Notes: generated by a model from the sequence alone, not told the origin. DNA of 64,000 bases from Eubacteriales bacterium (GCA_045632285.1 JAZQWJ010000051.1:7955-71954); one strand, 5' to 3'. Shown: positions 1,558 to 47,995, counted from the stretch's first letter. Numbers and translations: made by a program.

Positions 1558-1578
1558 AATGCGCATAACAAGAAAACT

Positions 1579-1596
1579 TGTGAATATTTATTCGCG
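1579..1596. promoter_or_regulatory. Near-consensus ARG box (ArgR operator) in the argG 5' UTR
   Basis: TGTGAATATTTATTCGCG matches the 18-nt consensus TNTGAATWWWWATTCANW at 16/18 positions. It lies between the -10 box and the argG RBS. Confidence 0.55.
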
Positions 1597-1606
1597 GAGG
1601 CACATT

Positions 1607-2830
1607 ATGGATAAGAATAACATCAAAAAAGTCGTTTTGGCCTATTCGGGCGGTCTGGATACGTCCATCATCATCCCGTGGCTGAAAGAGAATTATAACA
1701 ACTGCGAGGTCATTGCGGTTTCGGGTAACGTTGGACAGGCTGACGAGCTGGAGGGCCTGGAGGAAAAGGCCATCAAGACCGGTGCTTCTAAGTGCTACGT
1801 GCTGGATCTGACCGACGATTACGTTGACAATTATATCATCCCCTGCGTAAAGGCAGGCGCCATTTACGAGGAGTATCTGCTTGGCACCAGCCACGCCCGC
1901 CCTTGCATTGCCAAGGCGTTGGTCGACGTTGCCATCAAGGAGGGCGCAGACGCCATTGCTCACGGCTGCACCGGCAAGGGTAACGATCAGGTGCGCTTTG
2001 AGCTGACCATCAAGCGCTTTGCACCCGATATGCCCATCATCGCCCCCTGGCGTGAGTGGACCATCAAGTCCCGTGAGGAGGAGATCGACTATGCAGAGGC
2101 GCACAACGTGCCCCTGAAGATCAACCGCGAGACCAACTATTCCAAGGATAAGAACCTGTGGCATCTCTCTCACGAGGGTCTGGATCTGGAGGATACCGGC
2201 AACGAGCCTAAGTACGAAAAGCCCGGCTTCCTTGAGATGGGCGTTTCTCCCATCAACGCACCCGACGTGCCCACCTACGTAGAGCTGGAGTTCGAGCAGG
2301 GCAAGCCCGTTGCACTGAACGGCGAGAAGATGAGCGCCAAGAACATCATTCTTGCGCTGAACAAGATCGGTGGCGAGAACGGCATCGGCCTTTTGGACAT
2401 CGTGGAGAACCGCCTTGTCGGTATGAAGTGCCGCGGCGTGTACGAGACCCCCGGCGGAGCCATCCTTTACAAGGCGCACAGCGTGCTGGAGACCCTTTGC
2501 CTTGACAAGTACACCATGCACGAAAAGCAGAAGCTGGCCGTGACCTACGGTGAGCTGGTCTACAACGGTCAGTGGTTCACCCCCCTGCGCGAGGCACTTG
2601 CCGCATTTGTTGACAAGACCCAGGAGCGCGTCAGCGGTAAGGTGCGCCTTAAGCTCTACAAGGGCAATATGATCAACGCAGGCGTATGGAGCCCCTATAC
2701 CCTGTACAGCGAGGAGATCGCTACCTTTGGCGAGAGCAATTATAACCAGAAGGACGCAGAGGGCTTTATCAACCTCTTTGGCCTGCCGATCCAGGTGCAG
2801 GCAATGTCCGATATGGGCAAGCTGAAATAA
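1607..2830 (+). CDS. argG: Argininosuccinate synthase
   Basis: N-terminus [20 protein letters not shown] (the [12 protein letters not shown]-binding motif). GGAGG RBS before the ATG at 1607. The track ORF starts earlier at 1559 without an RBS. Confidence 0.95.
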
Positions 2831-2923
2831 TAAAAGCGGAGACCGCTTCGCTTATGACCAAGGACTGCCGTATTTTTGCGGCAGTCCTATGGTGTTCAAA
2901 AGGGAGCTTTAGGAGATAGAAAA

Positions 2924-4297
2924 ATGGCAAAAATGTGGGCGGGGAGGACCGCGGGCGACACCGATCGCGTGGCGGACGATTTCAATTCCTCCATTCACTT
3001 TGACAGCAGAATGTATAAGCAGGATATCACGGGCAGTATGGCGCACGCTGCCATGCTTGCAAAGCAGGGGATCATCACCGAGGCCGAGGCGGCACAGCTG
3101 ATCGACGGCCTTGCCGGCATCCTTTCCGATCTGGATAGCGGTGCTTTGGAGATCGATATGACTGCCGAGGATATCCATATGTTTGTCGAGCAGGTGCTGA
3201 CCGAGCGGCTGGGCGACGTGGGCAAAAAGCTTCACACTGCAAGATCCCGCAACGATCAGGTGGCGCTGGACGTCCGGATGTATCTGCGCGAGGAGACCGA
3301 CGGTATTATGGCACAGCTTCGCACGTTGCTTTCGGTGCTTTGCGACAGTGCCGAGCAATATCAGGCTACCATCATGCCGGGCTATACCCATCTGCAGCGT
3401 GCCCAGCCCATCACCTTTGGTCATTGGCTGATGGCCTATGCCATGATGCTGCTGCGCGATCTTGACAGGCTTTCTGACTGTCGCCGCCGCATCAACGTAT
3501 CTCCCATCGGCTGTTGCGCGCTGGCGGGCACCACCTACAACACCGACCGCCGCTTTGAGGCGGAGCGCCTTGGGTTTGACGGCATCTGCCGCAATTCTCT
3601 GGACGGCGTTTCCGACCGTGATTTCTGCCTTGAATTCATGTCCGCCTGCTCGGTGATGATGATGCACCTTTCCCGTATGTCAGAGGAGATCATTTTGTAT
3701 TCCAGCTGGGAGTTTGCCTTTATCGAGCTGTCGGATGCTTATACCACGGGCTCTTCTATTATGCCGCAAAAGAAAAACTCGGATATGGCCGAGCTGATCC
3801 GCGGCAAGACAGGGCGCGTGTACGGCGATCTGATGGCGCTGCTTACCACCTTAAAGGGTTTGCCCCTTGCCTATAACAAGGATATGCAAGAGGATAAGGA
3901 GAGCCTGTTTGACGCGGTGGATACCGTGAAAATGTGCCTTGCGGTGTTGACGCCGATGCTGAAGACCATGACCGTTAAGCCCCAAAATATGAAAAAAGCG
4001 GCACAGGGCGGCTTTATCAACGCCACCGACTTGGCCGATTATCTGGTGGGCAAGGGGATTCCCTTCCGCACCGCATACAAGATCTCCGGCAGCCTGGTTG
4101 CCCATTGCATCAAGGAAGGCACCGTGTTGGAGGAGCTGCCGCTTGAGGTCTATCGCACCTACAGCGAACTGTTTGACGAAACGCTGTATGATGCCATTGA
4201 CCTGACCGCCTGTGTCGAGCGTCGCATTTCCGAGGGTGGTACCTCTGCTGCATCTGTGCGGGCGCAGATCGCCTACGTAAAGGAGCAACTGCAATGA
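2924..4297 (+). CDS. argH: Argininosuccinate lyase
   Basis: Begins MAKMWAGR. Carries the fumarate-lyase signature region GSSIMPQKKN. AGGAG RBS 8 nt upstream of the ATG at 2924. Confidence 0.95.
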   Translation: MAKMWAGRTAGDTDRVADDFNSSIHFDSRMYKQDITGSMAHAAMLAKQGIITEAEAAQLIDGLAGILSDLDSGALEIDMTAEDIHMFVEQVLTERLGDVGKKLHTARSRNDQVALDVRMYLREETDGIMAQLRTLLSVLCDSAEQYQATIMPGYTHLQRAQPITFGHWLMAYAMMLLRDLDRLSDCRRRINVSPIGCCALAGTTYNTDRRFEAERLGFDGICRNSLDGVSDRDFCLEFMSACSVMMMHLSRMSEEIILYSSWEFAFIELSDAYTTGSSIMPQKKNSDMAELIRGKTGRVYGDLMALLTTLKGLPLAYNKDMQEDKESLFDAVDTVKMCLAVLTPMLKTMTVKPQNMKKAAQGGFINATDLADYLVGKGIPFRTAYKISGSLVAHCIKEGTVLEELPLEVYRTYSELFDETLYDAIDLTACVERRISEGGTSAASVRAQIAYVKEQLQ

Positions 4298-5214
4298 CAA
4301 AAGTATTTATTGACGGCTCTGCCGGCACCACGGGTCTGCGCATTCACGAGCGCTTGGCCGCGCGCGCCGATCTGGAGCTTTTGATCCTGCCGGAGGAGGC
4401 GCGCAAGGACCCCACCGCCCGCCGTGATATGCTGAAGGCGGCCGATATCGCGTTTCTCTGTCTGCCTGATGCCGCCGCTATCGAGGCCGTTGCACTGGCC
4501 GAGGGCTGTAACGTGCGGATCATTGACACCTCTACCGCGCACCGCGTCGATCCCAATTGGGTCTACGGCTTTGCTGAGCTGACGGGATACGATAAGATCG
4601 CCGCAGCCACGCGCGTGGCCAATCCCGGCTGCCACGCCAGCGGATTTTTGGCGCTGACCACGCCCCTTGTGCGGGCGGGACTTTTGAAAAGTGATGCCGC
4701 GCTTACCTGCTTTTCGCTGACCGGCTACTCGGGCGGCGGAAAAAAGATGATCGCCGATTATGAGGGAGAGGGCAGAGATGCGCTTTTAAAGGGTCCCCGT
4801 CAGTATGCTCTGGGGCAAAGCCATAAGCATCTGCCTGAGATGGTGCAGATCGCGGGCCTTTCAAGCGCCCCTGTGTTCTGTCCTATCGTAGGGGATTTTT
4901 ACAGCGGTATGGAAGTGACCGTTCCGGTTTTTGCAAAGGATCTGATGGGCACTGTTGAGGAGCTTAAGGCCGTATACCGTGAGACCTACAAGCGCGGACT
5001 TGTTCGCTTTACCGAGGATGAGGGAGAAGGCGGCTTTTTGTCGGCCTCTGCTTTTTCGGGCAGAGATGATATGGAGTTGCGTGTTGCGGGCAACGGCGAC
5101 CGTATATTGCTGGTGGCTCGCTTTGACAACCTCGGCAAGGGCGCCTCGGGTGCCGCCATTCAAAATATGAACGTGATGCTTGGTGCCAACGAGACCACCG
5201 GGCTGGTCGTATAA
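4294..5214 (+). CDS. argC: N-acetyl-gamma-glutamyl-phosphate reductase (short form)
   Basis: 306 aa. Overlaps the argH stop by 4 nt (ATGA). Has the GCHASG active-site cysteine context and an FDNLGKGASGAA C-terminal motif. Confidence 0.85.
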   Translation: MTKVFIDGSAGTTGLRIHERLAARADLELLILPEEARKDPTARRDMLKAADIAFLCLPDAAAIEAVALAEGCNVRIIDTSTAHRVDPNWVYGFAELTGYDKIAAATRVANPGCHASGFLALTTPLVRAGLLKSDAALTCFSLTGYSGGGKKMIADYEGEGRDALLKGPRQYALGQSHKHLPEMVQIAGLSSAPVFCPIVGDFYSGMEVTVPVFAKDLMGTVEELKAVYRETYKRGLVRFTEDEGEGGFLSASAFSGRDDMELRVAGNGDRILLVARFDNLGKGASGAAIQNMNVMLGANETTGLVV

Positions 5215-5227
5215 AGGAGAAAAAAGT

Positions 5228-6442
5228 ATGAAGATCATTTCCGGCGGCGTTTGTGCCGCAAAGGGCTTTAAAGCAAACGGCATTCACTGCGGCATTCGCA
5301 AAAACCGCACCAAAAAGGATCTGGCGCTGATCGTCAGTGACGTGCGTGCTTCTGCCGCTGCTGTTTACACCACCAATCTGGTCAAGGGCGCACCCCTGAC
5401 CGTAACCAAGCAGCATATTGCCGACGGCTTTGCACAGGCAGTGATCTGCAACAGCGGAAACGCCAACACCTGCAACGCCAATGGCATCGAGATCGCGGAA
5501 AAAATGAGCGAGCTGGTGGCAAAGGAGCTGAACATTGCCGCCACCGACGTGGTGGTCGCCTCCACCGGTGTGATCGGCCAGCCCCTGAATATCGAGCCCA
5601 TTGCAAACGGTCTGCCCGCGCTTGCCGCAGGGCTTTCCGCAAATGGCGGCGAGGCTGCTGCAGAGGGCATTATGACCACCGATACCGTGAAAAAGGAGAT
5701 TGCCATCGAGTTCGAGATCGGCGGCAAGACCTGCCGCCTTGGCGGTATTGCCAAGGGCAGCGGTATGATCCACCCCAATATGGCAACGATGCTGGTGTTT
5801 ATTACCACCGACGTGGCCATTTGTGCCGCTATGCTGGAAAAGGCACTGAAGCATGACGTGCAGAATACCTTTAATATGACCAGTGTGGACGGAGATACCT
5901 CTACCAACGATATGGTCACCGTGCTGGCAAACGGTATGGCAGGCAATGCCGAGATCACCGAGGACGGCGCAGATTTTAGAGCGTTTATGAAGGCGCTGAA
6001 CACCGTAACCGTTCACCTCTGCCGCGAGATCGCGGGCGACGGTGAGGGTGCCACAAAGCTGTTGGAGTGCAAGGTCAGCGGCGCGGCAGACGACAAAACT
6101 GCCAAGACGGTCGCAAAGAGCGTGATCTGCTCCAGCCTTTTAAAGGCGGCTATGTTTGGCGCGGATGCCAACTGGGGTCGTGTGCTGTGCGCCATCGGCT
6201 ACAGCGGTGCTGACGTAGACGTGAACAAGGTTGACGTGTCCTTCCGCTCTCCCAAGGGCACCGTGGTCGTTTGCAAGAACGGTGCGGGTGTGGAATTCTC
6301 TGAGGAGATCGCAAAAGAGATCCTGCTGGAGCGTGAGATCGAGATCCTGATCGGGCTGAACAGCGGTGATTTTGACGCAACCGCCTTTGGCTGCGACTTG
6401 ACGTATGATTACGTCAAAATAAATGGAGACTATCGCACCTGA
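5228..6442 (+). CDS. argJ: Bifunctional ornithine acetyltransferase / N-acetylglutamate synthase
   Basis: Starts MKIISGGVCAAKGFKANG. Self-cleavage site context GMIHPNMATMLVFITTD and C-terminal YVKINGDYRT. AAAGGAG RBS. Confidence 0.95.
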   Translation: MKIISGGVCAAKGFKANGIHCGIRKNRTKKDLALIVSDVRASAAAVYTTNLVKGAPLTVTKQHIADGFAQAVICNSGNANTCNANGIEIAEKMSELVAKELNIAATDVVVASTGVIGQPLNIEPIANGLPALAAGLSANGGEAAAEGIMTTDTVKKEIAIEFEIGGKTCRLGGIAKGSGMIHPNMATMLVFITTDVAICAAMLEKALKHDVQNTFNMTSVDGDTSTNDMVTVLANGMAGNAEITEDGADFRAFMKALNTVTVHLCREIAGDGEGATKLLECKVSGAADDKTAKTVAKSVICSSLLKAAMFGADANWGRVLCAIGYSGADVDVNKVDVSFRSPKGTVVVCKNGAGVEFSEEIAKEILLEREIEILIGLNSGDFDATAFGCDLTYDYVKINGDYRT

Positions 6443-7162
6443 TACGAAATAAGCGGCGCGATGCGTCGTTGCTCCTCGCAGGCGAACTCGACGATCGTCA
6501 AGATCGCCGTTGCCCGTCTGCTGCGGTGCGCCTAGCCTCGCTTGCTTCTTTCGCCTCAGGGCATAGCCGGAGATGCGAGATAAGCGGCGCATAGCTGTGT
6601 TCTTTTTAAAAGTTTTGGCCTCGCTTTTTCAAAAGCGAGCGGGCGCATGTCAACTTGCCTGCGGCAAATAACTTGCCTGCGGCAAGTAGGATAACTTTGG
6701 CTTGCCGAGCAACGGCTCGGCATTTTGCCACGCAAAACCGCCAAACTTACGGCGGCGCCCCATATACGGCATGTTCTTTTTGCTAGCTTTTCATCTTTCT
6801 AAGCTCGCCGTTGGCGAGCAAACGGAGATTTTGCAACGGCTAAGCCGTTGATTTGCAAGCAAATTACCAAAATCTCTTGTGCCTTACATAGGCAAAAGAA
6901 AAAGCGACTAAGGAGGCTTGATTTGCTCAAAACAGCGTAGCCGCAAAGCTTTTCAACCTCCATAGCCACTTTTTCTTTGACGGAAGAAGCCGCAAAGAAA
7001 AAGTTATCAAAAAGAAACGGCGTTTTCGTGGGCTCTGCCCACACCCGCGACCTTTTGAAAAAGGTCGATCAAAACCTTCCCCAAGCGCACGCCGCTCCGC
7101 GAAGGCATATGACGAATAAGTGCCCTAACGGTACGAAAAAACACATATTTTAAGAGGAAATC
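6443..7162. repeat. Non-coding spacer densely packed with short perfect hairpins, splitting the arg cluster
   Basis: 720 nt with no credible ORF. At least nine distinct inverted repeats of 5-9 bp: 6620-6639, 6671-6687, 6703-6722, 6738-6755, 6803-6819, 6834-6850, 6851-6864, 6880-6894, 7048-7067. The 15-mer ACTTGCCTGCGGCAA is repeated at 6653 and 6671. Confidence 0.7.
6468..6546. repeat. Copy A of a dispersed ~78-nt intergenic repeat
   Basis: GTTGCTCCTCGCAGGCGAACTCGACGATCGTCAAGATCGCC...GCGGTGCGCCTAGCCTCGCTTGC aligns without gaps to 12299-12377. About 69 of 78 positions are identical by hand alignment. Confidence 0.75.
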
Positions 7163-8041
7163 ATGAACATCGACAATCATTTTTCCAACGCGCAGCGCGC
7201 CGAGGTGTTGACCCAAGCGCTGCCCTATATCAAAAAATATCACGGCAAGGTCATCGTTGTAAAATACGGTGGAAACGCTATGATCAATCAGCATCTCAAG
7301 GAGCAGGTGATGGAGGATATCGCCCTGCTTTGGTTGATCGGCGTCAAGGTGGTGCTGGTGCACGGCGGCGGCCCCGAGATCAATGAGGTGATGAACAAAT
7401 TTGGCAAACAGCCGGAATTTGTAGACGGCCTGCGCGTGACGGATAAAGAGACCGTGGATATCGTGCAGATGGTGCTGGCGGGCAAGGTCAACAAATCGCT
7501 GGTCACGCTGCTGCAGATGAAGGGCGGTCACGCCGTGGGCCTTTCGGGTATTGACGGCGGCTTGATCGAGGCAAGGGTCAAGGACGAGCGCCTTGGCTTT
7601 GTGGGTAAGATCACCAAGATCCGTCCTCAGCCCATTCAAAGCCTGCTGGAAAACAATTATATCCCCGTGGTATCTACTGTGGCCAGCGACAAGCAGGGCA
7701 ACGTGTATAACATCAACGGTGACACTGCCGCCGCTTATATTGCGGGGGCGTTGGGCGCGGAACGCCTGATCATGATGACGGATATCGCAGGCATCCTGCG
7801 CGACAAGGACGATCCCTCTACGTTGATCCCGCACATCACGATCAGCGAGGCTACCAAGCTGTATGAAGAGGGCGTGATCTCGGGCGGCATGATACCCAAG
7901 GTGGATTGCTGTATCGAGGCGTTGCGCCGCGGTGTGAAGGACGTGACCATTATGGATGGCCGTGTGCCGCACTCCATTTTGATGGAGCTGCTCACAGACG
8001 AGGGCGCAGGCACGATGGTGAAGGGAGAGCGCGATGAGTAA
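7163..8041 (+). CDS. argB: Acetylglutamate kinase
   Basis: 292 aa. Motifs VVKYGGNAM and LVHGGGPEI are typical of the amino-acid kinase family member ArgB. AAGAGGA RBS. Confidence 0.95.
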   Translation: MNIDNHFSNAQRAEVLTQALPYIKKYHGKVIVVKYGGNAMINQHLKEQVMEDIALLWLIGVKVVLVHGGGPEINEVMNKFGKQPEFVDGLRVTDKETVDIVQMVLAGKVNKSLVTLLQMKGGHAVGLSGIDGGLIEARVKDERLGFVGKITKIRPQPIQSLLENNYIPVVSTVASDKQGNVYNINGDTAAAYIAGALGAERLIMMTDIAGILRDKDDPSTLIPHITISEATKLYEEGVISGGMIPKVDCCIEALRRGVKDVTIMDGRVPHSILMELLTDEGAGTMVKGERDE

Positions 8042-9197
8042 GCTGCAGGAGCTGGATCGGCAATATGTTGCGGGCACCTATGCGCGCTTTCCCGTAGAGA
8101 TCGTGCGCGGCAAGGGCTCTTTGGTCTATGATACCGAGGGCAAGGAATATATCGATATGGGCACCGGCATCGGCGTGACTGCCTTTGGCGTTTGTGACGA
8201 TGCTTGGCAAGCTGCAGTGATCGGGCAGCTTGGTCGTGTGCAGCATACCTCTAACCTGTATTATACCGAGCCCTGCGCCAAGCTTGCAGAGCTGTTATGT
8301 ACCAAAACGGGTTTGAAAAAAGTGTTTTTTGGCAATTCGGGAGCCGAGGCCAACGAGTGCGCCATCAAGGTGGCACGCAAATATGCCGCCGAGAAAAAAG
8401 GCCCTGAATACAACGTGATCGTGACCCTGAAAAACAGCTTTCACGGCCGCACGCTCACCACTTTGGCTGCCACCGGGCAAGAGCATTATCACGAGTTGTT
8501 TCAGCCCCTTACCCCCGGCTTTGTGCACGTGGAGGCAGGAAATATCGACGAGCTTTTGCAGACCGTGGCCGACTGTAAGGTGGCAGGTATTCTGATCGAG
8601 TGCATTCAGGGCGAGGGCGGTGTCAACGTGGTAGACGGTGATTATATCCGCGCTGTGGCGGCTCTGTGTGAAAAAGAGGACATCGTCTTTATGGTAGACG
8701 AGGTGCAGACCGGAAACGGCCGCACCGGCCGGCTGTATGCTTATATGAACTTTGGCGTGACCCCCGATGTGGTCACCACGGCCAAGGGTCTTGGCGGCGG
8801 ATTGCCCATCGGCGCTTGCCTGCTTGGCGAGAAGGTGGAGGGCGTGTTAGGGTTTGGAGACCACGGCTCAACCTACGGTGGAAACCCTGTTGCCAGTGCG
8901 GGCGCGTGCAGCGTGATCTCTCGTATTGACGACAGTCTGCTTGCCGACGTGCGCCAAAAAAGCGCATACGTGTTTGATATTTGCAAGCACGCCCCCGGCG
9001 TGAAGTCGGTCAGCGGCCTTGGACTGATGATCGGCCTTGAGACCGAAAAGCCCGCAGGCGAGATCGTGAAGGCCTGTATTGAAAAGGGCGTTTTGTGTTT
9101 GACGGCCAAGAGCAAGGTGCGCTTGCTGCCCGCGCTCAATATCCCTATGGAGCAATTGAAAAAAGCAATCGAGATCATTTTGGATTGCTGCAAATGA
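8034..9197 (+). CDS. argD: Acetylornithine aminotransferase (class III PLP)
   Basis: 387 aa. Overlaps argB by 8 nt. Motifs FFGNSGAEANE, DEVQTGNGRTG and the TTAKGLGGG PLP-lysine region. Confidence 0.9.
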   Translation: MSKLQELDRQYVAGTYARFPVEIVRGKGSLVYDTEGKEYIDMGTGIGVTAFGVCDDAWQAAVIGQLGRVQHTSNLYYTEPCAKLAELLCTKTGLKKVFFGNSGAEANECAIKVARKYAAEKKGPEYNVIVTLKNSFHGRTLTTLAATGQEHYHELFQPLTPGFVHVEAGNIDELLQTVADCKVAGILIECIQGEGGVNVVDGDYIRAVAALCEKEDIVFMVDEVQTGNGRTGRLYAYMNFGVTPDVVTTAKGLGGGLPIGACLLGEKVEGVLGFGDHGSTYGGNPVASAGACSVISRIDDSLLADVRQKSAYVFDICKHAPGVKSVSGLGLMIGLETEKPAGEIVKACIEKGVLCLTAKSKVRLLPALNIPMEQLKKAIEIILDCCK

Positions 9198-9206
9198 GGA
9201 GTTACT

Positions 9207-10193
9207 ATGAACTTGAAAGGTAAAAGCTTTTTAAAGCTGTTGGATCTGACCCCCGAGGAGATCGGCGGTCTGATCGATCTTGCTGCTGAGTTGAAGGCAA
9301 AGAAAAAGGCGGGCATTCCCCACCGTCTTTGCGAGGGCAAGAGCATTGCACTGATTTTTGAAAAGACCAGCACCCGTACCCGCTGTGCCTTTGAGGTGGC
9401 TGCCGCCGATCTTGGTATGCATCCCACCTATCTGGATCCCTCCGGATCTCAGATCGGCAAAAAGGAGAGCATCCCCGATACCGCCCGCGTGCTTGGCCGT
9501 ATGTATGACGGCATCGAGTACCGCGGCTTTGGTCAGGAGATCGTAGAAAGTCTGGCAAAATATGCGGGCGTGCCTGTGTGGAACGGCCTGACCAACGAGT
9601 TTCATCCCACCCAGATCCTGGCCGATTTTTTGACCATTCGTGAGCATTTTGGCGAGCTGAAGGGTAAAAAGCTGGTGTATCTGGGCGATGCGCGCTATAA
9701 CATGGGCAACTCGCTGATGGTGGGCTGCGCCAAGATGGGTATGCATTTTGTGGCCGCCGCCCCCAAGAAATATTGGCCCGAGGCCGCCCTTGTGGCAGAG
9801 TGCAAGGCCATTGCTAAGGAGACCGGTGCGACCATTGCCTTTGAGGAGGACCCCAAGGCAGCCGTGGTGGGTGCCGACGTGCTTTATACCGACGTGTGGG
9901 TATCGATGGGCGAGCCCAAGGAGATCTTTGCCGAGCGCATTCGTGATCTCAGCCCTTACCGCGTGACCAAAGAGTTGATGGATATTGCCGGCGCGCAGTG
10001 CCGCTTTATGCACTGTCTGCCCGCCTTCCACGATCTTGGCACCGTGATCGGCCGCGAGATCCACCAGCAGTTTGGCATTGACTGCATGGAGGTCACCGAC
10101 GAGGTGTTTGAAAGCGAGCGCTCGATCGTGTTTGACGAGGCTGAAAACCGTATGCACACCATCAAGGCCGTGATGGCGGCAACCTTGGTGTAA
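9207..10193 (+). CDS. argF: Ornithine carbamoyltransferase
   Basis: 328 aa. Motifs STRTR, HPTQ and HCLPA. Confidence 0.95.
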
Positions 10194-10226: not shown

Positions 10227-10257
10227 AAAACGCACCCCGATCGGGGTGCGTTTTTTT
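10227..10257. terminator. Bidirectional terminator between argF and the HPr-like gene
   Basis: CGCACCCC-GATC-GGGGTGCG stem flanked by an A-run upstream and T7 downstream. Confidence 0.85.
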
Positions 10258-10273
10258 GATACCGTTTGGGCAC

Positions 10274-10738: not shown

Positions 10739-12280
10739 ATGAATTTGGGACTTGCAATCGGCTTGATTGCAGCTGCTCTTGTTCTGGGTGCCGTTGTTGG
10801 CTTTGTGATCCGCCGTTTTATTGCGGAAAAAAAGATCCACGGTGCCGAGGCAGAGGCCAAGCGCATTCTTGCAGATTGCGCACAGCAGGCTGAAGCGATG
10901 AAAAAAGAGCGCTTGCTTGAGGCAAAGGACGAGATCCTGCGCCAGCGCAACGATGCCGAGGCTGAACTGAAGGAACGTCGTGCAGAGGTCAAGAGCGCCG
11001 AGCGCCGTCTGATCCAAAAAGAAGAAAATCTGGATCACAAATCCGAAGCACTGGACCGTAAAAACGAGACCCTTGAGCAGAAGATCCACGAAAATGATGC
11101 TCTGCGCGAGGAGATCGCCGCAACTCTTGCCCAACACAAAAAGGTTTTGGAGGACTTGGCGGGTATGACTGCCGAGGAGGCCAAGGACGAGCTGCTGGAG
11201 CGTGTAGAGGGTGAGGTCAAGCACGAGCTTGCGCAACGCCTTGACGAGCTGGATGCTCAGTTTAAGGATGAGGCCGAGACCAAGGCACGCAACATCCTTT
11301 CCCTTGCCATTCAGCGTTGCGCCACCGATCACGTGGCAGAATCCACCATTTCTGTGGTGCAGATCCCCAGCGAAGAAATGAAGGGACGCATCATCGGTCG
11401 TGAGGGCCGTAACATCCAAAAGCTGGAGACCCTGACCGGTGTTGAACTGATCATTGACGACACGCCCGAGGCGATCACGCTTTCCGGCTTTGACCCTGTC
11501 CGCCGCGAGGTGGCCCGTCTCACCCTGGAAAAGCTGATCTCTGACGGTCGCATCCATCCCGCCCGCATCGAGGAAACGGTGGAAAAATGCCGCCGCGAGG
11601 TCGATGCCGTGGTGAAGCAGGCGGGCGAGCGCGCCACTTATGAGGTGGGTATCCCCAACCTGCATCCCGATCTTGTCAAGCTGCTTGGCCGCTTGCGCTA
11701 CCGTACCAGCTACGGTCAAAACGTGCTGAAGCACTCGATCGAGGTCGCTTTCCTTGCCGGCATTATGGCAGAGGAGCTGGGTGTTGATGCCGCTGCCGCT
11801 AAGCGCGCAGGCTTGCTGCACGATATCGGCAAGGCATTCCCCCACGACGTAGAGGGAACTCACGTTGAGCTTGGTGTCAACGTGGCACGCAAGTATAAAG
11901 AAAGAAACGACGTGATCCACGCCATCGAGGCGCATCACAATGACGTAGAGCCCCAGACCGTTATCGCTATTTTGGTACAGGCCGCCGATGCCATTTCCGC
12001 ATCTCGCCCCGGTGCCCGTCGTGAGGATCTGGAGAACTACATCAAGCGCTTGCAGAAGCTGGAGGAGATCGCCACCGGCTTTGAGGGCGTTGAAAAGGCA
12101 TTTGCCATTCAGGCCGGCCGCGAGCTGCGCGTAATGGTCAAGCCCGAGGACGTGACCGACGAGGGTATGAAGCTGATCGCACGCGAAATGGCCAAAAAGA
12201 TCCAGGATGAGGTCAAGTACCCCGGACAGATCAAGGTCAACCTGATCCGCGAGAGCAGAGCAGTGGATTACGCCAAGTAA
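10739..12280 (+). CDS. rny: Ribonuclease Y
   Basis: 513 aa. N-terminal TM helix, a coiled-coil region rich in E/K/A, a KH domain ([11 protein letters not shown]) and an HD domain (LLHDIGKA). Confidence 0.95.
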
Positions 12281-12298
12281 AAAGCGTCGCGCTCCTGT

Positions 12299-12377
12299 GT
12301 TGCTCCTCGCAGACGAACTCGACGATCGCCAAGATCGCCATCGCCCGTCTGCTCCGGTGCGCCTTGGATCGCTCGCT
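12299..12377. repeat. Copy B of the dispersed ~78-nt intergenic repeat
   Basis: See copy A at 6468-6546. Located directly 3' of rny. Confidence 0.75.
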
Positions 12378-12455
12378 TTTCCAAAGCTTCGCATTGCGTC
12401 GTTGTTCCTCAAAAGCGGCTCGACGTAGATATACTACGCCTTCGCCTTGCTTTTT

Positions 12456-12517
12456 GCGGTACGCCTAGCACTGCTCGCTTTTGGCGGTGCGCTCCGGTGC
12501 GCCTTGGATCGCTTGTT
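12456..12517. repeat. Two further partial copies of the repeat's 3' module
   Basis: GCGGTACGCCTAGCACTGCTCGCTT (12456-12480), and GCTCCGGTGCGCCTTGGATCGCTTG (12491-12515) which is 24/25 identical to 12351-12375. The module TGCGTCGTTGYTCCTC also recurs at 6462 and 12395. Confidence 0.65.
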
Positions 12518-12546
12518 TCTAGGCAACCGATGCAATCAAACACAAA

Positions 12547-12579
12547 AGTCACCCTGTGTAAGGCGCAGGGTGACTTTTT
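12547..12579 (+). terminator. Terminator after rny and the repeat block
   Basis: AGTCACCCTG / CAGGGTGACT 10-bp stem followed by TTTTT. Confidence 0.8.
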
Positions 12580-33442: not shown

Positions 33443-33746
33443 TTAAAAAAGACTGCCTGTGCCCCAAGGCACAAGCAGTCACTTTGTCATGATGCCCCTT
33501 AGGGGCGCACCGAGGTGCGATTATGCAAACCCGCCGAGCCGTGTAACCGGTACCGAGAACCCTGTTTTAAACAAGGCGGTGCCCTGCCGCTCGCTTTACT
33601 GCTCCCAGCATCCTTGACCCCTGTCCGAGACAAGTCGATCGTAACAGGGAAGGGAGGTCTGCAAACCACGCGCGGACTCTATCCGGGCTCCAATTTCTGC
33701 GTGTAGGCTCCACTAACTCGATTATCACGCACTAAGCAGGCGTTTT
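33443..33746 (-). ncRNA. Unclassified structured non-coding region ending in a strong intrinsic terminator (candidate sRNA, long 3' UTR or cis-regulatory leader)
   Basis: About 300 nt with no plausible ORF between the DUF1292 stop (33747) and the SPFH operon. Minus-strand hairpins include CCCTGT...ACAGGG nested in CTCCC...GGGAG, GCAC-CTCG-GTGC, GCCCC-TAA-GGGGC and the palindrome CGGTACCG. It ends with a 13-bp imperfect stem GACTGCTTGTGCC / GGCACAGGCAGTC (one mismatch), then T6 (33443-33480). Confidence 0.45.
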
Positions 33747-42163: not shown

Positions 42164-42182
42164 ATTTTAGGAGGATAAGATT

Positions 42183-43127
42183 ATGTTGAAGGTTGGCGTA
42201 CAGTCTGCTGGCTGGTATTCTAAAGACGATCCCGTTGGCTCTTGCGAGTACATCAAGGAATGTGGCTTTGAGGCGATGGATTTCAATATCGATCATTACC
42301 TGAGTGTGGGTAAATTGATCAAGGAGGGCGTTTACCCCTCGTTTTTTGACAAGAGCATCGAGGAGATCCTGACGTTCTTCACCCCCCTCAAGGAGGCAAG
42401 CGAAAAGACCGGCGTTGCCGTTGGTCAGATGCACGCGCCCTTCCCGGTTTGGGTCAAGGACCGCGAGGAGATCAACGACTATATCTTTATGGCGCTGGAC
42501 AAGTGCTTTGCCGTGGCAGAGTATCTGAATTGCCCTGCCATCGTGGTGCATCCTGTCAACCGCTCTACCAGAGAGAAGGAGTGGGACACCAACCTGATGA
42601 TCTACCGCCGTCTGATCCCCGTGATCAAAAAGTACAAGGGCGTTAAGATCTGCCTGGAGAACATCTTCAGCCGCCGTCCCAACCGCATCATCGAGGGTCG
42701 CCTTGCTAACGCAGAGGAGGCCTGCCGCATGATCGACCTGCTCAACAAGGAGGCAGGCGGTGACTACTTTGGCTTCTGCCTTGACGTGGGTCACGCCAAT
42801 CTGACCAACCGTAACATCAAGGAGTACGTCAAGGAGCTGGGCGATCGCCTCACCATCCTGCACATCCACGACAACAACGGCTTTGAGGATATGCACATGA
42901 TCCCTTATTCCTATCTGGCAACCCCCTCCAGCCACGTGTGCGACTGGCAGGGCTTTGTAGAGGGTCTGAAGGAGATCGGCTACAAGGGCGTGCTGGCCTT
43001 TGAGACCTTCCGTATCTTCTCGGCTTATCCCGTTCCCTGCCGCAAGGCCGCGCTGAACCTGATCAGCTCCATCGGCCACTACTGGGCCGAGTGCATCGAC
43101 GATCCCAACTGGCCCGCAGCAAAATAA
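42183..43127 (+). CDS. Xylose-isomerase-like TIM-barrel protein, paralog 1
   Basis: 314 aa. MLKVGVQSAGWY, AIVVHP, CLEN, DVGHAN, HIHDN, FET. AGGAGG RBS. Confidence 0.8.
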   Translation: MLKVGVQSAGWYSKDDPVGSCEYIKECGFEAMDFNIDHYLSVGKLIKEGVYPSFFDKSIEEILTFFTPLKEASEKTGVAVGQMHAPFPVWVKDREEINDYIFMALDKCFAVAEYLNCPAIVVHPVNRSTREKEWDTNLMIYRRLIPVIKKYKGVKICLENIFSRRPNRIIEGRLANAEEACRMIDLLNKEAGGDYFGFCLDVGHANLTNRNIKEYVKELGDRLTILHIHDNNGFEDMHMIPYSYLATPSSHVCDWQGFVEGLKEIGYKGVLAFETFRIFSAYPVPCRKAALNLISSIGHYWAECIDDPNWPAAK

Positions 43128-43137
43128 TGATAAATCA

Positions 43138-43162
43138 TATGGGCGCGGTATCCGCGCCCATA
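43138..43162 (+). other. Intercistronic stem-loop between paralogs 1 and 2
   Basis: TATGGGCGCGG-TAT-CCGCGCCCATA is an 11-bp perfect stem with no U-tract. It sits 10 nt after the stop and 20 nt before the next ATG. Confidence 0.6.
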
Positions 43163-43181
43163 CGTGTAAAGGAGAGCAGTT

Positions 43182-44129
43182 ATGTTAAAAGTAGGTGTAC
43201 AGTCCTGCGGTTTTTACCGCGATGACGACCCCGTAGGATCTTTGGAATATATCAAGGCAAGAGGCTTTCAGTCTGTGGACTTCAACATTGATCTGAAAAT
43301 GCCCGTGGGCCGCCTTGTCAAGCAAAAAAACGGCCCGTTTGACAGCTTTTTCAGCAAATCCACCGAGGAGATCCTGGATTTTTATCGCCCCTTAAAGGAC
43401 GCCATCGCGCAGACCGGCGTGACCGTGGATCAGATGCACGCGCCCTTTCCCAGCTTTTTTCCCGGATATGACGAGCTCAACGACTATCTTTTCGAGGGCG
43501 TAGTCAAGTCCATGGCGGTCTGTCAGCTGGTCGGCTGCCCCGCCATCGTGGTGCATCCCACCCAGCGCTCTACCTTTGAAAAGGAGTGGGATACCAATCT
43601 GGCAAACTATCGCCGCCTGATCCCCGCCGCAAAGAAATACGGCGTTAAGGTGTGTCTGGAGAATATTTTCAACAACCGCGGCGGACGTATGGTAGAGGGT
43701 CGCCTTTCCAACGCCGCCGATGCCTGCCGTCTGATCGATCAGCTCAACGAGGAGGCGGGTGAGGAGTGCTTTGGCTTTTGTTTTGACATCGGCCACGCCA
43801 ATCTCACCAACCGCAACGTCAAGGAGTACGTCAAGACCCTTGGCCACCGTTTGACGATCCTGCACATTCACGACAACAACGGCAAGGATGATCTGCATAT
43901 GATCCCTTACTCCTATCTGGCAACGCCCAACCTGCATTCGATCGACTGGCAGGGCTTTGTAGAGGGCTTAAAGGAGATCGGCTACAAGGGCGTGCTCGGC
44001 TTTGAGGTCTGCCGCACCTGGATCGCTTATCCCAAGGCAGTGCACGATCTTATGCTGAACTTTGTGGCGGGCATCGGCAAATACTGGGCCGAGTGCATCG
44101 ACGACCCCGATTGGCCCGCAAAAAAGTAA
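43182..44129 (+). CDS. Xylose-isomerase-like TIM-barrel protein, paralog 2
   Basis: 315 aa. MLKVGVQSCGFY, AIVVHP, CLEN, DIGHAN, HIHDN, FEV. Confidence 0.8.
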   Translation: MLKVGVQSCGFYRDDDPVGSLEYIKARGFQSVDFNIDLKMPVGRLVKQKNGPFDSFFSKSTEEILDFYRPLKDAIAQTGVTVDQMHAPFPSFFPGYDELNDYLFEGVVKSMAVCQLVGCPAIVVHPTQRSTFEKEWDTNLANYRRLIPAAKKYGVKVCLENIFNNRGGRMVEGRLSNAADACRLIDQLNEEAGEECFGFCFDIGHANLTNRNVKEYVKTLGHRLTILHIHDNNGKDDLHMIPYSYLATPNLHSIDWQGFVEGLKEIGYKGVLGFEVCRTWIAYPKAVHDLMLNFVAGIGKYWAECIDDPDWPAKK

Positions 44130-44137
44130 CAAAAATA

Positions 44138-44171
44138 ACAGAAAACCCCGACACGTGTCGGGGTTTTCTGT
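44138..44171. terminator. Bidirectional terminator (34-nt perfect palindrome)
   Basis: ACAGAAAACCCCGACAC / GTGTCGGGGTTTTCTGT. Confidence 0.9.
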
Positions 44172-44189
44172 TGTTTAACTCGTTTGCGC

Positions 44190-45194
44190 TCAATCGATCC
44201 TTACCAGTACCTTGCCCCGCTTGGTGAGCGCGGGAGCAAGCATTTCTGCGGCGGCCTCATCCATCGAAAGCTCACCTGCGATGATCTTATCGGTCTGCAA
44301 TACGCCGCTTGCCAGCACCTGCACCGCACGGTCAGTGGTGTGAGGATTGACAAAGGAGGTCTTGATGGTCAGTTCCTTGCAGAAGGCATCATAGAGCGAA
44401 ATGGGCAGCTTCACCGCAGAATCGCTGACGCCGAACATCACAACGGTCGCACCCTTGCCTGCCACAGCCAGAGCCGTTTCCTGCGCAGGACCAACGCCAA
44501 CACATTCAATAACACGCTGAACGGGGTGCGTTTCGGCGTATTTTGCGATCGCCTCACTATCCTGCGCAGGCAGGAAAAGCGTGGCGCCAAGCTCCATCGC
44601 AAGGCCTCGGCGTGCCTCGTTGGCATCGATCACCAGAACCTCACCCGCACCCGCATTTTTGATCAGCTGCAGCATCATGGCACCGATGGCACCAAGGCCG
44701 ATCAGCGCAACACGCTCACCGTGGCGAATGCCAAGCAGATCCATACCGCGCAAGCAACAAGCAAGGGGCTCGCAAAGCGCGGCGTCGCGCAAAGAAAGGC
44801 CGGAGGGGAGGGGATATACGTTTTCTTCGGGAGAAACCACAAACTCGGCCATTCCCTTTACAACGCCTCGTCCGTTTTCGCAAAAGGAGCTTTGGCCGTT
44901 TTTGCAGTAATAGCATTTCCCGCAGGTCCAGTTGGGATCCACCGTTACGGGGTCGCCGACGCGAAATGCGGTCACACCCTCGCCGATAGCCTCAACCACA
45001 CCGGAGATCTCGTGTCCAAGCGGCACGGGATAGCGCACAGGGTGGGTATTCTTTTTGCCTGCGACCTTATGAAAATCACTGCCGCAAATGCCGCAAAATG
45101 CGACCCGTACCCGCACTTCTCCGGCTTTGGGAATGGGGGTTGGAAGCTCGCCCACGGTCACATTGCCGGGGTCGTTCAAAATCACTGCCTTCAT
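44190..45194 (-). CDS. Zinc-dependent alcohol/polyol dehydrogenase (MDR family)
   Basis: MKAVILNDPG..., the catalytic zinc region CGICGSDFH...GHEISG, a structural-zinc Cys cluster CGKCYYCKNG, and Rossmann GLGAIG. AAGGAG RBS. Confidence 0.85.
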   Translation of the reverse strand: MKAVILNDPGNVTVGELPTPIPKAGEVRVRVAFCGICGSDFHKVAGKKNTHPVRYPVPLGHEISGVVEAIGEGVTAFRVGDPVTVDPNWTCGKCYYCKNGQSSFCENGRGVVKGMAEFVVSPEENVYPLPSGLSLRDAALCEPLACCLRGMDLLGIRHGERVALIGLGAIGAMMLQLIKNAGAGEVLVIDANEARRGLAMELGATLFLPAQDSEAIAKYAETHPVQRVIECVGVGPAQETALAVAGKGATVVMFGVSDSAVKLPISLYDAFCKELTIKTSFVNPHTTDRAVQVLASGVLQTDKIIAGELSMDEAAAEMLAPALTKRGKVLVRID

Positions 45195-45278
45195 TTTTCG
45201 CGCTCCTTGCTGTTTTTTATCATTATAGCACAAGCACAAACACAATACAAGGATTTTTCAAAAAGTTCCTGCAATGGC

Positions 45279-45307
45279 TTGACATTTCCGATCTGCTTTT
45301 TTATAAT
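45279..45307 (+). promoter_or_regulatory. Sigma-A promoter for TIM-barrel paralogs 3 and 4
   Basis: TTGACA, 17 nt, TATAAT. Divergent from the ADH gene. Confidence 0.7.
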
Positions 45308-45372
45308 GGAGGTAACTGCAAGAAAAGGACAGTCCCCTTGCGGAATTTTTGAAAACCTTGGAGGGTTTTATT

Positions 45373-46305
45373 ATGCTGAGAATTGGTGTGCAGTCTGCGG
45401 GCTGGTATAACAAGGACGATCCCGACGGCTCCTTTGCTTTTATCAAGTCCTGCGGCTTTGATGCAACTGACTTTAACATTGACCACTACCTGTCCACCGG
45501 CGCTCTTGCCAAGAGCCCCGATGCGCCCCACTCCTTCTTTGACAAGAGCATTGAGGAGATCCTGGAGTTCTTTACCCCTTTGAAGGAAGCCTCCGAAAAG
45601 CACGGTGTGGCCATTGCACAGATGCACGCACCCTTCCCGGTGTGGATCAAGGACCGCGAGGATATCACCGAGCACGCCCTGATGGCGGTTGAAAAGTGCC
45701 TGCAGGTCTGTGAGTACGTGGGCTGTCCCGCCATCGTGGTGCACCCCGTTGGCCGTTCCACCAAGGAAAAGGAGGTTGCCTGCAACATGGCGATCTATCG
45801 CCGCCTGATGCCCATGGCCGTTAAGACCGGGGTAAAGGTGTGCCTTGAGAATTTGTTTGGCACCTACAAGGGCCGTGTGATCGAAGGCCCTTGCGCCGAC
45901 GTGAACGAGGCTTGCTGGTATCTGGATACCCTCAATGCCGAGGCCGGCTGTGATGCCTTTGGCTTCTGCCTGGATATCGGCCACGCCAACCTGCTGGGCC
46001 GTAACATCAAGGAATACGTCAAAAAGCTGGGCAACCGTCTGACCGTGTTGCACATTCACGACAACGACGGCAGAGGCGATCTGCACGGCATGCCCTATAC
46101 CTTTACCCGCAACTGGGGCGCAGATTGGATCTGCGACTGGGACGGCTTTGTAGATGGTCTGAAGGAGATCGGCTACCAAGGTGCGCTGGGCTTTGAGACC
46201 TTCCGCGTGATCTGCTCCAACTTCCCCCGCGCACTTTGGCCCGAGGCACTGAAGCTGATCAGCGCAACCGGCCGCTACTGGGCAAGCCGCATTGAGGCGG
46301 AATAA
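45373..46305 (+). CDS. Xylose-isomerase-like TIM-barrel protein, paralog 3
   Basis: 310 aa from MLRIGVQSAGWY. GGAGGG RBS. AIVVHP, CLEN, DIGHAN, HIHDN, FET. Confidence 0.8.
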   Translation: MLRIGVQSAGWYNKDDPDGSFAFIKSCGFDATDFNIDHYLSTGALAKSPDAPHSFFDKSIEEILEFFTPLKEASEKHGVAIAQMHAPFPVWIKDREDITEHALMAVEKCLQVCEYVGCPAIVVHPVGRSTKEKEVACNMAIYRRLMPMAVKTGVKVCLENLFGTYKGRVIEGPCADVNEACWYLDTLNAEAGCDAFGFCLDIGHANLLGRNIKEYVKKLGNRLTVLHIHDNDGRGDLHGMPYTFTRNWGADWICDWDGFVDGLKEIGYQGALGFETFRVICSNFPRALWPEALKLISATGRYWASRIEAE

Positions 46306-46317
46306 GGAGCGATCGCC

Positions 46318-47244
46318 ATGTTAAAGGTTTGCGTACAGACCAGCGGCAGCGGCTTTAACCCCTACGATCCCGCCCCCGGCTTTGCACTGCTGAAGCAGTG
46401 CGGCTTTGAAGAGGTGGACTACAACACGGGCTATCTGCTGCCCGGCACTGCCATCACCAAGGGGCCGCTGACCGAGTTCTTCGATCAGGATATGGAGGCC
46501 ATTCTGGCCCATTTTGCCCCCATCAAGGCCGCCGCTAAGGAAAACGGCATCGGCTTTTCCCAAATGCACGCACCTTTCCCCGTGTGGGTCAAGGATAACG
46601 AGACGGTCAGTGCGTATATGATCACGGTGGTGGAAAAGCTCTGCCGCGTCTGCGCATTTCTCGGCTGCCCCGCCATCGTAGTGCATCCCGTCAACCGTAC
46701 CCTGAAGGAGGACGAGCTTGCCACCAACTTTGCGCTGTATCGGGCGCTGATCCCCGTGGCAAAGGAAACAGGCGTTAAGATCTGCTTGGAAAATATGTTC
46801 ACCAACTTTAACGGACATACCACCGAGGGTGCCTGCGCCGATGCCGCCGAGGTGTGCACGTATATCGACACCTTGAACGCCGAAGCAGGGGAGAATTGCT
46901 TTGGCTATTGTCTTGACGTGGGCCACGCCAATCTGGTGGGCAAAAAGCTGCGCGGCTTTGTCCGCGCGCTGGGTCACAGACTGACCGTTTTGCACCTGCA
47001 CGAGAACAACGGCATACTGGACCAGCATCTGGCCCCCTATACGCAGACCGCTGTTGTCAACACCAAAAGCGCAATGGATTGGGAGGGCTTTATCGGAGCT
47101 CTGCGCGAGATCGGCTACCGGGGAAGCCTCAGCTTTGAGACCTTCCACGCCACCAGCCTGATCCCCGCACCCCTGCGCCCTGCTATGCTGTCCTATATTG
47201 CCGCCGTCGGCCATTATTGGGCACAGCGCATTGACGCGGAATAA
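46318..47244 (+). CDS. Xylose-isomerase-like TIM-barrel protein, paralog 4
   Basis: 308 aa. MLKVCVQTSG, AIVVHP, CLEN, DVGHAN, HLHEN, FET. Confidence 0.8.
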   Translation: MLKVCVQTSGSGFNPYDPAPGFALLKQCGFEEVDYNTGYLLPGTAITKGPLTEFFDQDMEAILAHFAPIKAAAKENGIGFSQMHAPFPVWVKDNETVSAYMITVVEKLCRVCAFLGCPAIVVHPVNRTLKEDELATNFALYRALIPVAKETGVKICLENMFTNFNGHTTEGACADAAEVCTYIDTLNAEAGENCFGYCLDVGHANLVGKKLRGFVRALGHRLTVLHLHENNGILDQHLAPYTQTAVVNTKSAMDWEGFIGALREIGYRGSLSFETFHATSLIPAPLRPAMLSYIAAVGHYWAQRIDAE

Positions 47245-47292: not shown

Positions 47293-47339
47293 GTAAAACG
47301 AAAACCACGCGATAGTCGCTTGGTTCAGTAGAGGTTAAC

Positions 47340-47995
47340 CGATGAACAGGAAATCCTCCGTTGTGATATAATGAGTTTGACCTGCCAGTCAAAACTAAAA
47401 AACACAACGGAGGATTTATCTATGAAAGAAGTTTCCACAGACACAAATAGTTTAGCACATACAACATGGAATTGCAAGTACCATATTGTGTTTGCGCCGA
47501 AATACAGACGAAAAGCATTTTTTGATGGCAACCGAGAAGAAATACGAGAAATATTGCGAAAATTATGCGAATGGAAAGGGGTGAGTATAGAAGGGGGAGA
47601 GGTGTGCGCAGATCATGTACATATGTTGGTGAATATCCCGCCCAAAATGAGCGTTTCGGGCTTTATGGGGTATCTGAAAGGTAAAAGCGCAATGCAAATT
47701 TTTCAAAGATGGGGAAATATGAAGTTTGCATACCGAAATCGCGAATTTTGGTGTAAGGGATATTACGTTGATACCGTGGGGAAGAACACGAAAGCAATAA
47801 AGGAATACATAGCGCAACAACTAAAGCACGATAGAGAAAGTGACCAGTTAGCAATGTTCGACCCACGGGACCCATTTATGGGTAGTAAGTAACCCATGCA
47901 TGACTGGCAGGTCCTCTAACGCGCACTTGTGCGCCGCCAGTGACGTAAGGGCTATGCCCGAAAATGAAATCCCCCCCGCTACGCGGGGGGATATT
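47340..47995 (+). mobile_element. IS200-type element (IS200/IS605 family, tnpA only)
   Basis: Y1 transposase gene flanked by structured ends: a 15-bp inverted repeat at 47351-47365 / 47403-47417, the hairpin TTTGACCTGCCAGTCAAA (47376-47393), its reverse-complement core GACTGGCAGGTC at 47902-47913, and the G/C hairpin at 47969-47992. Visibly AT-richer than its flanks. Boundaries are approximate. Confidence 0.7.
47422..47892 (+). CDS. tnpA: IS200/IS605 family transposase TnpA (Y1 HUH)
   Basis: HTTWNCKYHIVFAPKYRRK, the HUH motif DHVHMLV, and the catalytic Tyr region GYYVDTVG. Start MKEVSTD with a GGAGGA RBS. Confidence 0.9.
   Translation: MKEVSTDTNSLAHTTWNCKYHIVFAPKYRRKAFFDGNREEIREILRKLCEWKGVSIEGGEVCADHVHMLVNIPPKMSVSGFMGYLKGKSAMQIFQRWGNMKFAYRNREFWCKGYYVDTVGKNTKAIKEYIAQQLKHDRESDQLAMFDPRDPFMGSK

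Follow-up and report, generated by a model that had tools for sequence, protein, structure and literature searches.

Why should a tightly packed set of arginine biosynthesis genes be interrupted by 720 nt in which no gene can be recognized? The question is posed by a 64,000-nt stretch of DNA from an Eubacteriales bacterium (GCA_045632285.1, JAZQWJ010000051.1:7955-71954; hereafter, the window), in which argG, argH, argC and argJ are separated from argB, argD and argF by a spacer at positions 6443-7162. An earlier reading of the letters alone (the sequence-only reading) had described this spacer as an array of unrelated perfect hairpins without a credible gene, in a cluster whose other junctions are tight. 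NCBIfam gene calls agree on the last two points: the argJ–argB gap is 720 nt, and the remaining junctions of the cluster are overlaps or short gaps. We conclude that the spacer is probably made up of small dispersed repeats, non-coding and strongly structured, which accumulated as a mosaic in a junction ancestrally 42 nt long. The repeat family to which they belong is uncatalogued and resides in uncultured ruminant-gut Oscillospiraceae.

A scan for perfect hairpins (stems of at least 6 bp, loops of 2-8 nt) found exactly nine in the spacer, in line with the earlier count of at least nine; seven had been listed individually, and the two additional ones lie at 6723-6737 and 7028-7042. Across 1000 dinucleotide-preserving shuffles the spacer yielded 2.0 ± 1.4 hairpins (maximum 8), and for stems of at least 7 bp the six observed hairpins compare with 0.56 ± 0.77; neither observed count was reached in any shuffle. 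No other 720-nt interval in the 64 kb matched the density of nine, the runner-up holding seven. Folded as a whole, the plus strand of the spacer reached −278.3 kcal/mol (z = −8.7 versus shuffles), and the minus strand gave z = −5.9.

Conventional gene content was sought in several ways. An 81-aa antisense open reading frame (ORF) lies at 6799-7044 and a 150-aa antisense ORF is also present; the 81-aa ORF and four further spacer ORFs had no match in Pfam. A promoter scan detected no plus-strand sigma-70-like promoter in the spacer, as the sequence-only reading had said of the DNA in front of argB, and a terminator scan detected no canonical terminator there, returning a single weak terminator-like site at 6584-6598. 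The Rfam search that had been proposed as a check gave no gathering-level match anywhere in the window; scanning 6000-7600 at E-values up to 10 produced chance-level matches only, among them a chance match of a miRNA model to the long hairpin at 6882-6989. No tRNA or tmRNA was found by scanning, and plasmid and phage collections held nothing similar to the spacer. A 24-codon ORF inside one of the repeat modules described below (module A) was considered and rejected as coding, because 1-nt indels in the apical loop break its frame among copies.

What fills the spacer became clear from comparison with other loci, which are labelled here L001, L002 and so on. All nine perfect hairpins fall in four multi-hairpin modules, namely A (~120 nt), B (~180 nt, three hairpins), C (78 nt) and D (105 nt), and each module has relatives at other loci in the source genome or in related ruminant-gut Oscillospiraceae genomes (Table 1). 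The sequence-only reading had counted uniqueness to this locus among the signs that the spacer is inert filler; related copies were found elsewhere. The insert is composed of module A, the truncated start of another A, and two inverted B modules, with D and C nested in the hairpins of one B copy.

Table 1. Modules of the argJ–argB spacer, further module A copies and neighbouring genes, in window coordinates.
Feature	Position	Strand	Basis
Module A, long imperfect hairpin of ~120 nt	6438-6560	+	nhmmer core match, E = 3e-27
Second A-type module, truncated to its 5' start (ATAAGCGGCGCATAGCTGTGTTC), then T-run	6572-6602	+	sequence identity
Module B, plus copy, piece 1	6604-6645	+	nhmmer, B profile positions 14-55
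Module D, in the loop of B(+) hairpin 2 (GGGCGC...GCGCCC)	6646-6750	+	interrupts B profile between positions 55 and 58
Module B, plus copy, piece 2	6751-6798	+	nhmmer, B profile positions 58-102
Module C, in the left arm of B(+) hairpin 3	6799-6876	+	79% identical to L015 183-259
Module B, plus copy, piece 3: apical sub-hairpin and right arm of hairpin 3	6877-6917	+	nhmmer, B profile from position 101
Module B, minus copy	about 6905-7095	-	nhmmer, E = 1.4e-60
TGACGAATAAG, direct repeat of TGAtACGAAaTAAG (6440-6453)	7110-7120	+	read by eye, aligned with L006/L058 junctions
Ancestral 42-nt argJ–argB leader, ribosome-binding site (RBS) AAGAGG at 7152-7157	7121-7162	+	identity to L058 spacer
Module A, second window copy, begins at rny stop TAA	12279-12380	+	nhmmer, E = 1e-27
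Module A, third copy, diverged (A' variant), direct tandem	12383-12482	+	nhmmer, E = 2.6e-12
argG	1559-2830		NCBIfam
argH	2876-4297		NCBIfam
argC	4294-5214		NCBIfam
argJ	5180-6442		NCBIfam
argB	7163-8041		NCBIfam
argD	8034-9197		NCBIfam
argF	9207-10193		NCBIfam
rny, after argF	10739-12280		NCBIfam

The spacer copy of module A is anchored in the end of argJ itself: its basal stem pairs CCTGA at 6438-6442, which includes the argJ stop codon TGA (6440-6442), with TCAGG at 6556-6560. Its conserved core spans 6448-6549 under an apical stem CGATC/GATCG; its minimum free energy is −54.2 kcal/mol (z = −3.2), and it is 87% identical to L007 9787-9910. The truncated A start behind it is 94% identical to L001 9784-9814 and 87% to L002 9794-9824, which are the starts of A variants at the argJ–argB junctions of those genomes; the weak terminator-like site mentioned above falls inside this fragment.

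The first piece of the plus-strand B copy carries the hairpin CTCGCTTTT-TC-AAAAGCGAG at 6620-6639, whose counterpart is CGACCTTTTTCAAAAGGTCG in L006 and CAATCTTTTTTCAAAAAGATTG in L002, and the second piece is 82% identical to L002 13301-13347. The minus-strand copy, which contains the hairpins at 7028-7042 and 7048-7067, is 79% identical over 178 nt to L006 4849-4673; module B also occurs in L058 and L002. The two copies lie tail to tail and together make a large palindrome centred near 6930. It is here that the description of the hairpins as unrelated, with stems all different in sequence, does not hold, since hairpins 6620-6639 and 7048-7067 represent one B position in two copies whose stems are fully compensated (CTCGC and CGACC, with CAATC in L002).

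The nested modules show the same kind of kinship. Module D contains hairpins 6671-6687, 6703-6722 and 6723-6737, and its 6670-6755 portion is 77% identical to L010 87-6 on the minus strand; the 15-mer that had been seen twice, 18 nt apart, is real and reflects an 18-nt tandem duplication (6652-6669 / 6670-6687). In module C, an outer stem GGAGATTTTG/CAAAATCTC surrounds hairpins 6834-6850 and 6851-6864, and hairpin 6803-6819 precedes it; comparison with L015 revealed compensated stems (GCTCGCC/GGCGAGC versus ACTCGCC/GGCGAGT; GGAGAT/ATCTC versus GGAGTT/AACTC). Only about 6550-6571 and 7096-7110 are left without a module assignment.

The way in which the junction grew can be read from nine relative loci in independent assemblies, which were reached via ArgB homologues at 89-93% identity. 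Presence/absence polymorphism at this site, named as a check by the sequence-only reading, was observed. The argJ–argB gap measures 42 nt in L006, L058 and L010 (and in L011/L012, with the same ArgB protein), 54 nt in L059, 205 nt in L002, 215 nt in L001, 218 nt in L007, 349 nt in L060 and 720 nt in the window. Empty sites read ...ACT TAA tgccctaacggtacgaaaaaacacatattttaagaggaaatc ATG. Window positions 7121-7162 match the 42-nt spacer of L058 without a difference and that of L006 at 87% identity, and the TAA at 7117-7119 lines up with the codon that ends argJ in the empty-site relatives. The inserted DNA therefore amounts to ~678 nt (6440-7116), flanked on one side by the final sense codon of argJ and on the other by the former TAA stop with its leader, and the new argJ stop TGA was contributed by the insert. 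In a tree of argJ, argB, argD and argF, the sisters of the window are L006 and L058, which both have the empty site, at ~85% nucleotide identity. The 3' end of argF is a second polymorphic site, with module A present in L002, L010 and L059 and absent in L001, L060 and the window. Occupancy thus varies at orthologous sites and copies are multiple and dispersed, as in miniature inverted-repeat transposable element (MITE)-like families.

Two separate observations concern this junction. In L060, the argJ–argB spacer is enlarged by three tandem units of ~83 nt (5760-5990), each including the right basal arm of module A (CTTGCTTCTTTTCCATCAGGGCGTAGCCGG). In the window, a 21-nt motif, TGCCCWAACGGTAYSAAAAAA, occurs at 7121-7141 (+) and 10252-10272 (−), each time right after a stop codon, in one case the ancestral stop of argJ and in the other that of a small, HPr-like minus-strand gene; ~0.01 chance matches are expected, and the motif is conserved in L006 and L058.

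Module A is the most widely represented of the four. An nhmmer census returned 25 matches, three of them in the 64-kb window. The spacer copy (6448-6547) is 84% identical to 12279-12378, which directly follows the rny stop codon, and a canonical terminator lies at about 12537-12570, downstream of the third copy. We then scanned one genome per GTDB species with a 23-nt module A core; true matches were confined to metagenome-assembled genomes (MAGs) of ruminant-gut Clostridia/Oscillospiraceae. The MAG RGIG3987 holds at least five exact-core copies on four contigs, and others occur in RGIG5254, RGIG1736, RGIG8557, SIG624, SIG629 and one MAG labelled Lachnospiraceae. About 30 of the 44 genome-scan matches, mostly from Pseudomonas, were discarded as coding or chance, lacking the GT prefix and downstream core. 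Scans of metagenomes gave no match to a gapped pattern and one short partial, probably chance match to a plain pattern, in a collection that is uninformative for this lineage. A full-text literature search found no description of this family.

Fourteen module A copies can be aligned to one long hairpin with 35 pairs, of which 19 show compensatory change. Of the aligned cells, 91.4% are paired, versus 76.0 ± 1.2 in shuffles (none of 500 as high) and 27-45% once the pairing partners are shifted against each other. The central helices are invariant in sequence, and the apical stem exists in at least five mutually compensated versions (ATC/GAT, TAC/GTA, TAG/CTA, AAC/GTT and ATG/CAT). The outermost 7-12 bp differ at every locus: there the right flank forms its pairs with the end of the upstream gene (final codons or stop codon), as in CCTGATG/CATCAGG (argJ), TTCGCATA/TATGCGAA (L037), TCTCTCG/CGAGAGA (L043) and TAAGACCG/CGGTCTTA (L059). 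Basal duplexes formed with a copy's own flank average −11.9 kcal/mol versus −5.2 kcal/mol with the flanks of other copies (permutation p < 5e-5).

Position is just as regular. Every module A copy is oriented in sense with the gene upstream of it, tandem followers are all on the same strand, and in 17/18 first-in-array copies a same-strand ORF of at least 105 aa has its stop codon −8 to +5 nt from the A-run; counted by independent sites, this is about 11/12. Such strict orientation and abutment speaks for a competing explanation, in which module A, and with it the array, is a selected cis-acting RNA device of the 3' untranslated region (3'-UTR), for example a portable terminator, attenuator or RNase processing site, rather than selfish DNA. 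Its retention at stop codons would be due to an interaction of translation termination with the basal helix. Several further features can be cited for this explanation. Where a canonical terminator is present, the stop codon usually comes first, then the modules and then the terminator (rny in the window, argF in L002, L037/L055). At orthologous sites in two species, stems differ yet remain compensated (the basal stem in L037/L055, the apical stem in L015/L026). In the sense strand, G-U exceeds A-C in the helices, 37 versus 13, an excess that weakly favours folding of this strand. Operon-end copies carry an uninterrupted run of T5-6 after a GC-rich stem (L002, L059, L015, L037, L043 and L055), and the intra-operon copies between argJ and argB have a broken run, TTCTTTC. 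The spacer module A ends in TTCTTTCG, others in CGCG-TTTTTT or CACGATTTTT. In this small sample the broken run fits selection against full termination inside an operon.

We nevertheless consider a selected 3'-UTR device unlikely as the explanation of the array. The element is missing at the same sites in sister species of identical gene order, its tandem number is variable, one copy (L032) lies after a canonical terminator, that of rpmH and upstream of rnpA, and the G-U bias among variable pairs only is weak, at 23 versus 13. A related and similarly tentative idea is that module A is an undescribed portable gene-end element, serving as a mobile terminator or as a signal that protects 3' ends, and tuned by how intact its T-run is. 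It would be sense-oriented at stop codons, with a basal helix rebuilt by fold-back, and related modules would prefer existing hairpins. We doubt that this is the case; if it were true, operon junctions could be progressively pried apart by modules inserting into hairpins.

The explanation that we regard as likely is that the spacer represents an uncatalogued family of non-autonomous structured repeats, similar to repetitive extragenic palindromic (REP) sequences, bacterial interspersed mosaic elements (BIMEs) and ERIC, and is co-transcribed with the operon. The suggestion in the sequence-only reading of a non-autonomous mobile element is borne out in kind by copies in the window and in relatives and by empty sister sites. 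According to this proposal, the modules would spread as non-autonomous DNA, with the hairpin required for propagation. Newly arriving units would settle in or beside existing hairpins, as suggested by D in a B loop, C in a B arm and the three tandem units of L060, and nesting together with tandem duplication would enlarge the arrays. For the basal stem, which differs from locus to locus, the simplest explanation would be fold-back (intrastrand template-switch) synthesis, in which the T-run primes on the A-run and the gene end is copied in inverted form.

The array would be read through from the arg promoter within one argGHCJBDF mRNA. Read-through to argBDF, as previously surmised, would be the only visible route, because the 42-nt leader is an ancestral intra-operon junction that in relatives joins argJ directly to argB, and no promoter was seen in the spacer. 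The classical effect of the malE-malF REP is 3' stabilization of the upstream cistron. By analogy with REP and ERIC, the array would probably act both as a 3' barrier to exonucleases that stabilizes the upstream argGHCJ RNA and, being a partial brake or a site of processing, to reduce argBDF in relation to argGHCJ. Any such effect would be dispensable, because sister species lack the array.

Several observations weigh against the interpretation as mobile repeats and temper our confidence in it. The case for mobility consists of presence/absence and multi-copy distribution; no transposase is linked to the modules, and there is no clear target-site duplication. A 9-11-nt direct repeat (6440-6453 / 7110-7120) does bracket the whole composite and overlaps the conserved A start AAATAAG, so that it may be either a target duplication or the start of another A copy. 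Other filled/empty pairs showed no consistent duplication, and the repeats at the C insertion and at the composite ends overlap element-internal sequence. On the gene tree, filled and empty junctions are patchily distributed. Every filled allele has ACC-TGA-TG where the empty ones have ACN-TAA-T, and the last argJ codons of the window (CGC ACC TGA) are nearer to those of the filled L007 (CGT ACC TGA) than to those of its empty sisters (AGG ACT TAA). Homologous recombination, rather than repeated insertion, may thus have spread the filled allele, or the site may have been re-targeted. The apical-stem variants of module A recur across species and are marks of subfamilies, which alone do not prove ongoing selection on each copy. 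In the compared DNA, modules C and D have one relative each and B has three. Finally, the source is seemingly a short-read MAG, and the internal order of repeats could hold an assembly error.

A true REP/REPIN-BIME system mobilized by a RAYT-type Y1 transposase is very unlikely. Hairpin repeats in transcribed intergenic DNA and two B modules in a REPIN-like inverted arrangement would suit it, as would a Y1 (HUH) transposase gene in the window (47423-47892). This transposase is an IS200 TnpA (144.9 bits, cutoff 55) that fails the RAYT model (32.3 bits, cutoff 80); it is the only Y1 transposase in the window, which contains no RAYT. The modules measure 80-180 nt rather than 20-40 nt, and module A arrays are direct tandems, not alternating. 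The ends of the transposase element share nothing with the modules, and we rejected a link between the two. As an element in its own right, this IS200-type insertion sequence occupies 47330-47960, with its TnpA ORF on the plus strand (Y1_Tnp E = 4.7e-38; NF033573, 144.9 bits); a typical left-end hairpin sequesters the RBS, and its GC content looks clearly lower than that of the surrounding DNA.

Repeat-induced chimeric joining during metagenome assembly is a very improbable origin of the spacer. The relatives are all MAGs, the closest database protein comes from an NCBI contig, and the short metagenome contigs L008 and L009 break exactly at the junction, all of which would fit an artefact. Against this, both flanks are collinear with relatives, arrays of 205-349 nt stand at the same junction in independent JGI, ENA and NCBI assemblies, and the nested B(+) pieces are in correct order and orientation. 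The L008 and L009 contigs start 39-66 nt before argB, inside the repeat-bearing junction, which suggests that the repeats break short-read assemblies. A decayed gene or insertion sequence, or independent small RNA (sRNA) genes as the sequence-only reading had also entertained, is hardly credible: long non-coding stretches in operons are sometimes pseudogene remnants and two antisense ORFs do exist, but the spacer ORFs match nothing in Pfam, neither plasmids nor phages show similarity, repeat modules account for nearly all of the spacer, and there are neither promoter/terminator pairs nor an Rfam match that would support embedded sRNAs.

Other features of the window and of one relative are recorded here. 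A probable 6S RNA (RF00013) lies at 33524-33745 (−), in a 776-nt stretch between larger ORFs, with a score of 36.7 bits that is below the gathering score of 46.4 (E = 1.1e-5). Behind a minus-strand beta-helix gene (48103-49284), the 3' region at 47960-48102 is dense in hairpins, with four perfect ones in 210 nt, and has the 10-mer GAGATGCGAG in common with spacer positions 6569-6578. Five consecutive paralogous genes of ~310 aa occupy 42181-47244 (+) at 66-71% DNA identity, the first of which (42183-43127) matches the xylose isomerase-like TIM barrel family AP_endonuc_2. Two adjacent metallo-beta-lactamase-fold genes at 51308-53067 (−) share 88% identity over 876 nt and represent a recent tandem duplication. 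In L059, a long structured-looking leader with a terminator-like hairpin (9330-9640) precedes an ABC substrate-binding gene and may be a riboswitch or T-box.

The argJ–argB junction offers a concrete and datable case in which a tight biosynthetic operon junction grew from 42 to about 210, 349 and 720 nt by stepwise accretion of structured repeats, with the arg gene order unbroken throughout. The family also bears on MAG assembly, where contigs break at repeat sites, and on the annotation of gene ends and terminators. The type of element is familiar; the graded allele series and the gene-end behaviour of module A are unusual. Near-obligate abutment to stop codons, sense orientation and a basal helix apparently templated by the host gene are uncommon traits among bacterial small repeats, and point to either a specific insertion/fold-back mechanism or a selected role at mRNA 3' ends.

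How, then, does the spacer compare with established families? It resembles REP/BIME, ERIC and BOX-type repeats in kind, but falls outside each of them as strictly defined. What it has in common with REP and BIME is that structured repeats stand in transcribed intergenic DNA, in many cases directly behind a stop codon within an operon, that several motif types form mosaics, and that relatives differ in presence/absence. The proposed REP/BIME character accordingly stands as regards copies elsewhere and empty sites, but not as regards size, alternation and RAYT association. REP/BIME families are defined by more than 100 copies per genome. In Enterobacteria and Pseudomonas they consist of 20-40-nt palindromes, whereas the modules here comprise 80-180 nt with one long or several hairpins, in a Clostridia lineage and with a locus-specific basal stem. 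PMC2817692 describes the REPs of BIMEs as alternating in orientation, whereas all six A tandems lie on the same strand and only the two B copies are inverted.

ERIC/IRU (127 bp), RU-type MITE-like elements and pneumococcal BOX are likewise imperfect palindromes of ~100-130 nt or modular, reside in transcribed intergenic DNA, occupy orthologous sites variably, are lengthened by internal insertions and, for BOX, vary in unit number. Module A differs from them in having no sequence similarity, a strict sense orientation with stop-codon abutment, termini that are apparently copied from the host gene end instead of being conserved inverted repeats, and no TA or other clear target duplication. Membership among strict MITEs was rejected, as the outer 7-12 bp differ per locus and match the host gene end, with only the A-run/T-run and inner core shared.

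Integron attC sites are also imperfect palindromes (60-140 nt) that directly follow or overlap the stop of the upstream ORF in fixed orientation, with structure partly more conserved than sequence. An attC identity was rejected, because module A ends in AAAATAAGCGG ... CGCTTGCTTCTTTT and has no RYYYAAC/GTTRRRY cores; no integrase was looked for outside the loci. Moreover, the genes beside it (argJ, argF, rny and rpmH) belong to the syntenic core and are not cassettes, the central core of module A is highly conserved in sequence, and it is the element, not the gene, that varies in presence. Intrinsic (rho-independent, bidirectional) terminators share the 5' A-run, GC-rich stem and 3' T-run right after stop codons, and several operon-end module A copies have uninterrupted T5-6. 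Unlike them, module A is a ~120-nt hairpin with many internal loops, in which the T-run is itself paired and followed by further stem, the T-run of the arg-operon copy is broken, and the copies form a sequence family with a conserved 60-nt core. The combination of stop-codon abutment with a putatively host-templated basal helix thus appears to be what module A adds to the known class of bacterial small repeats.

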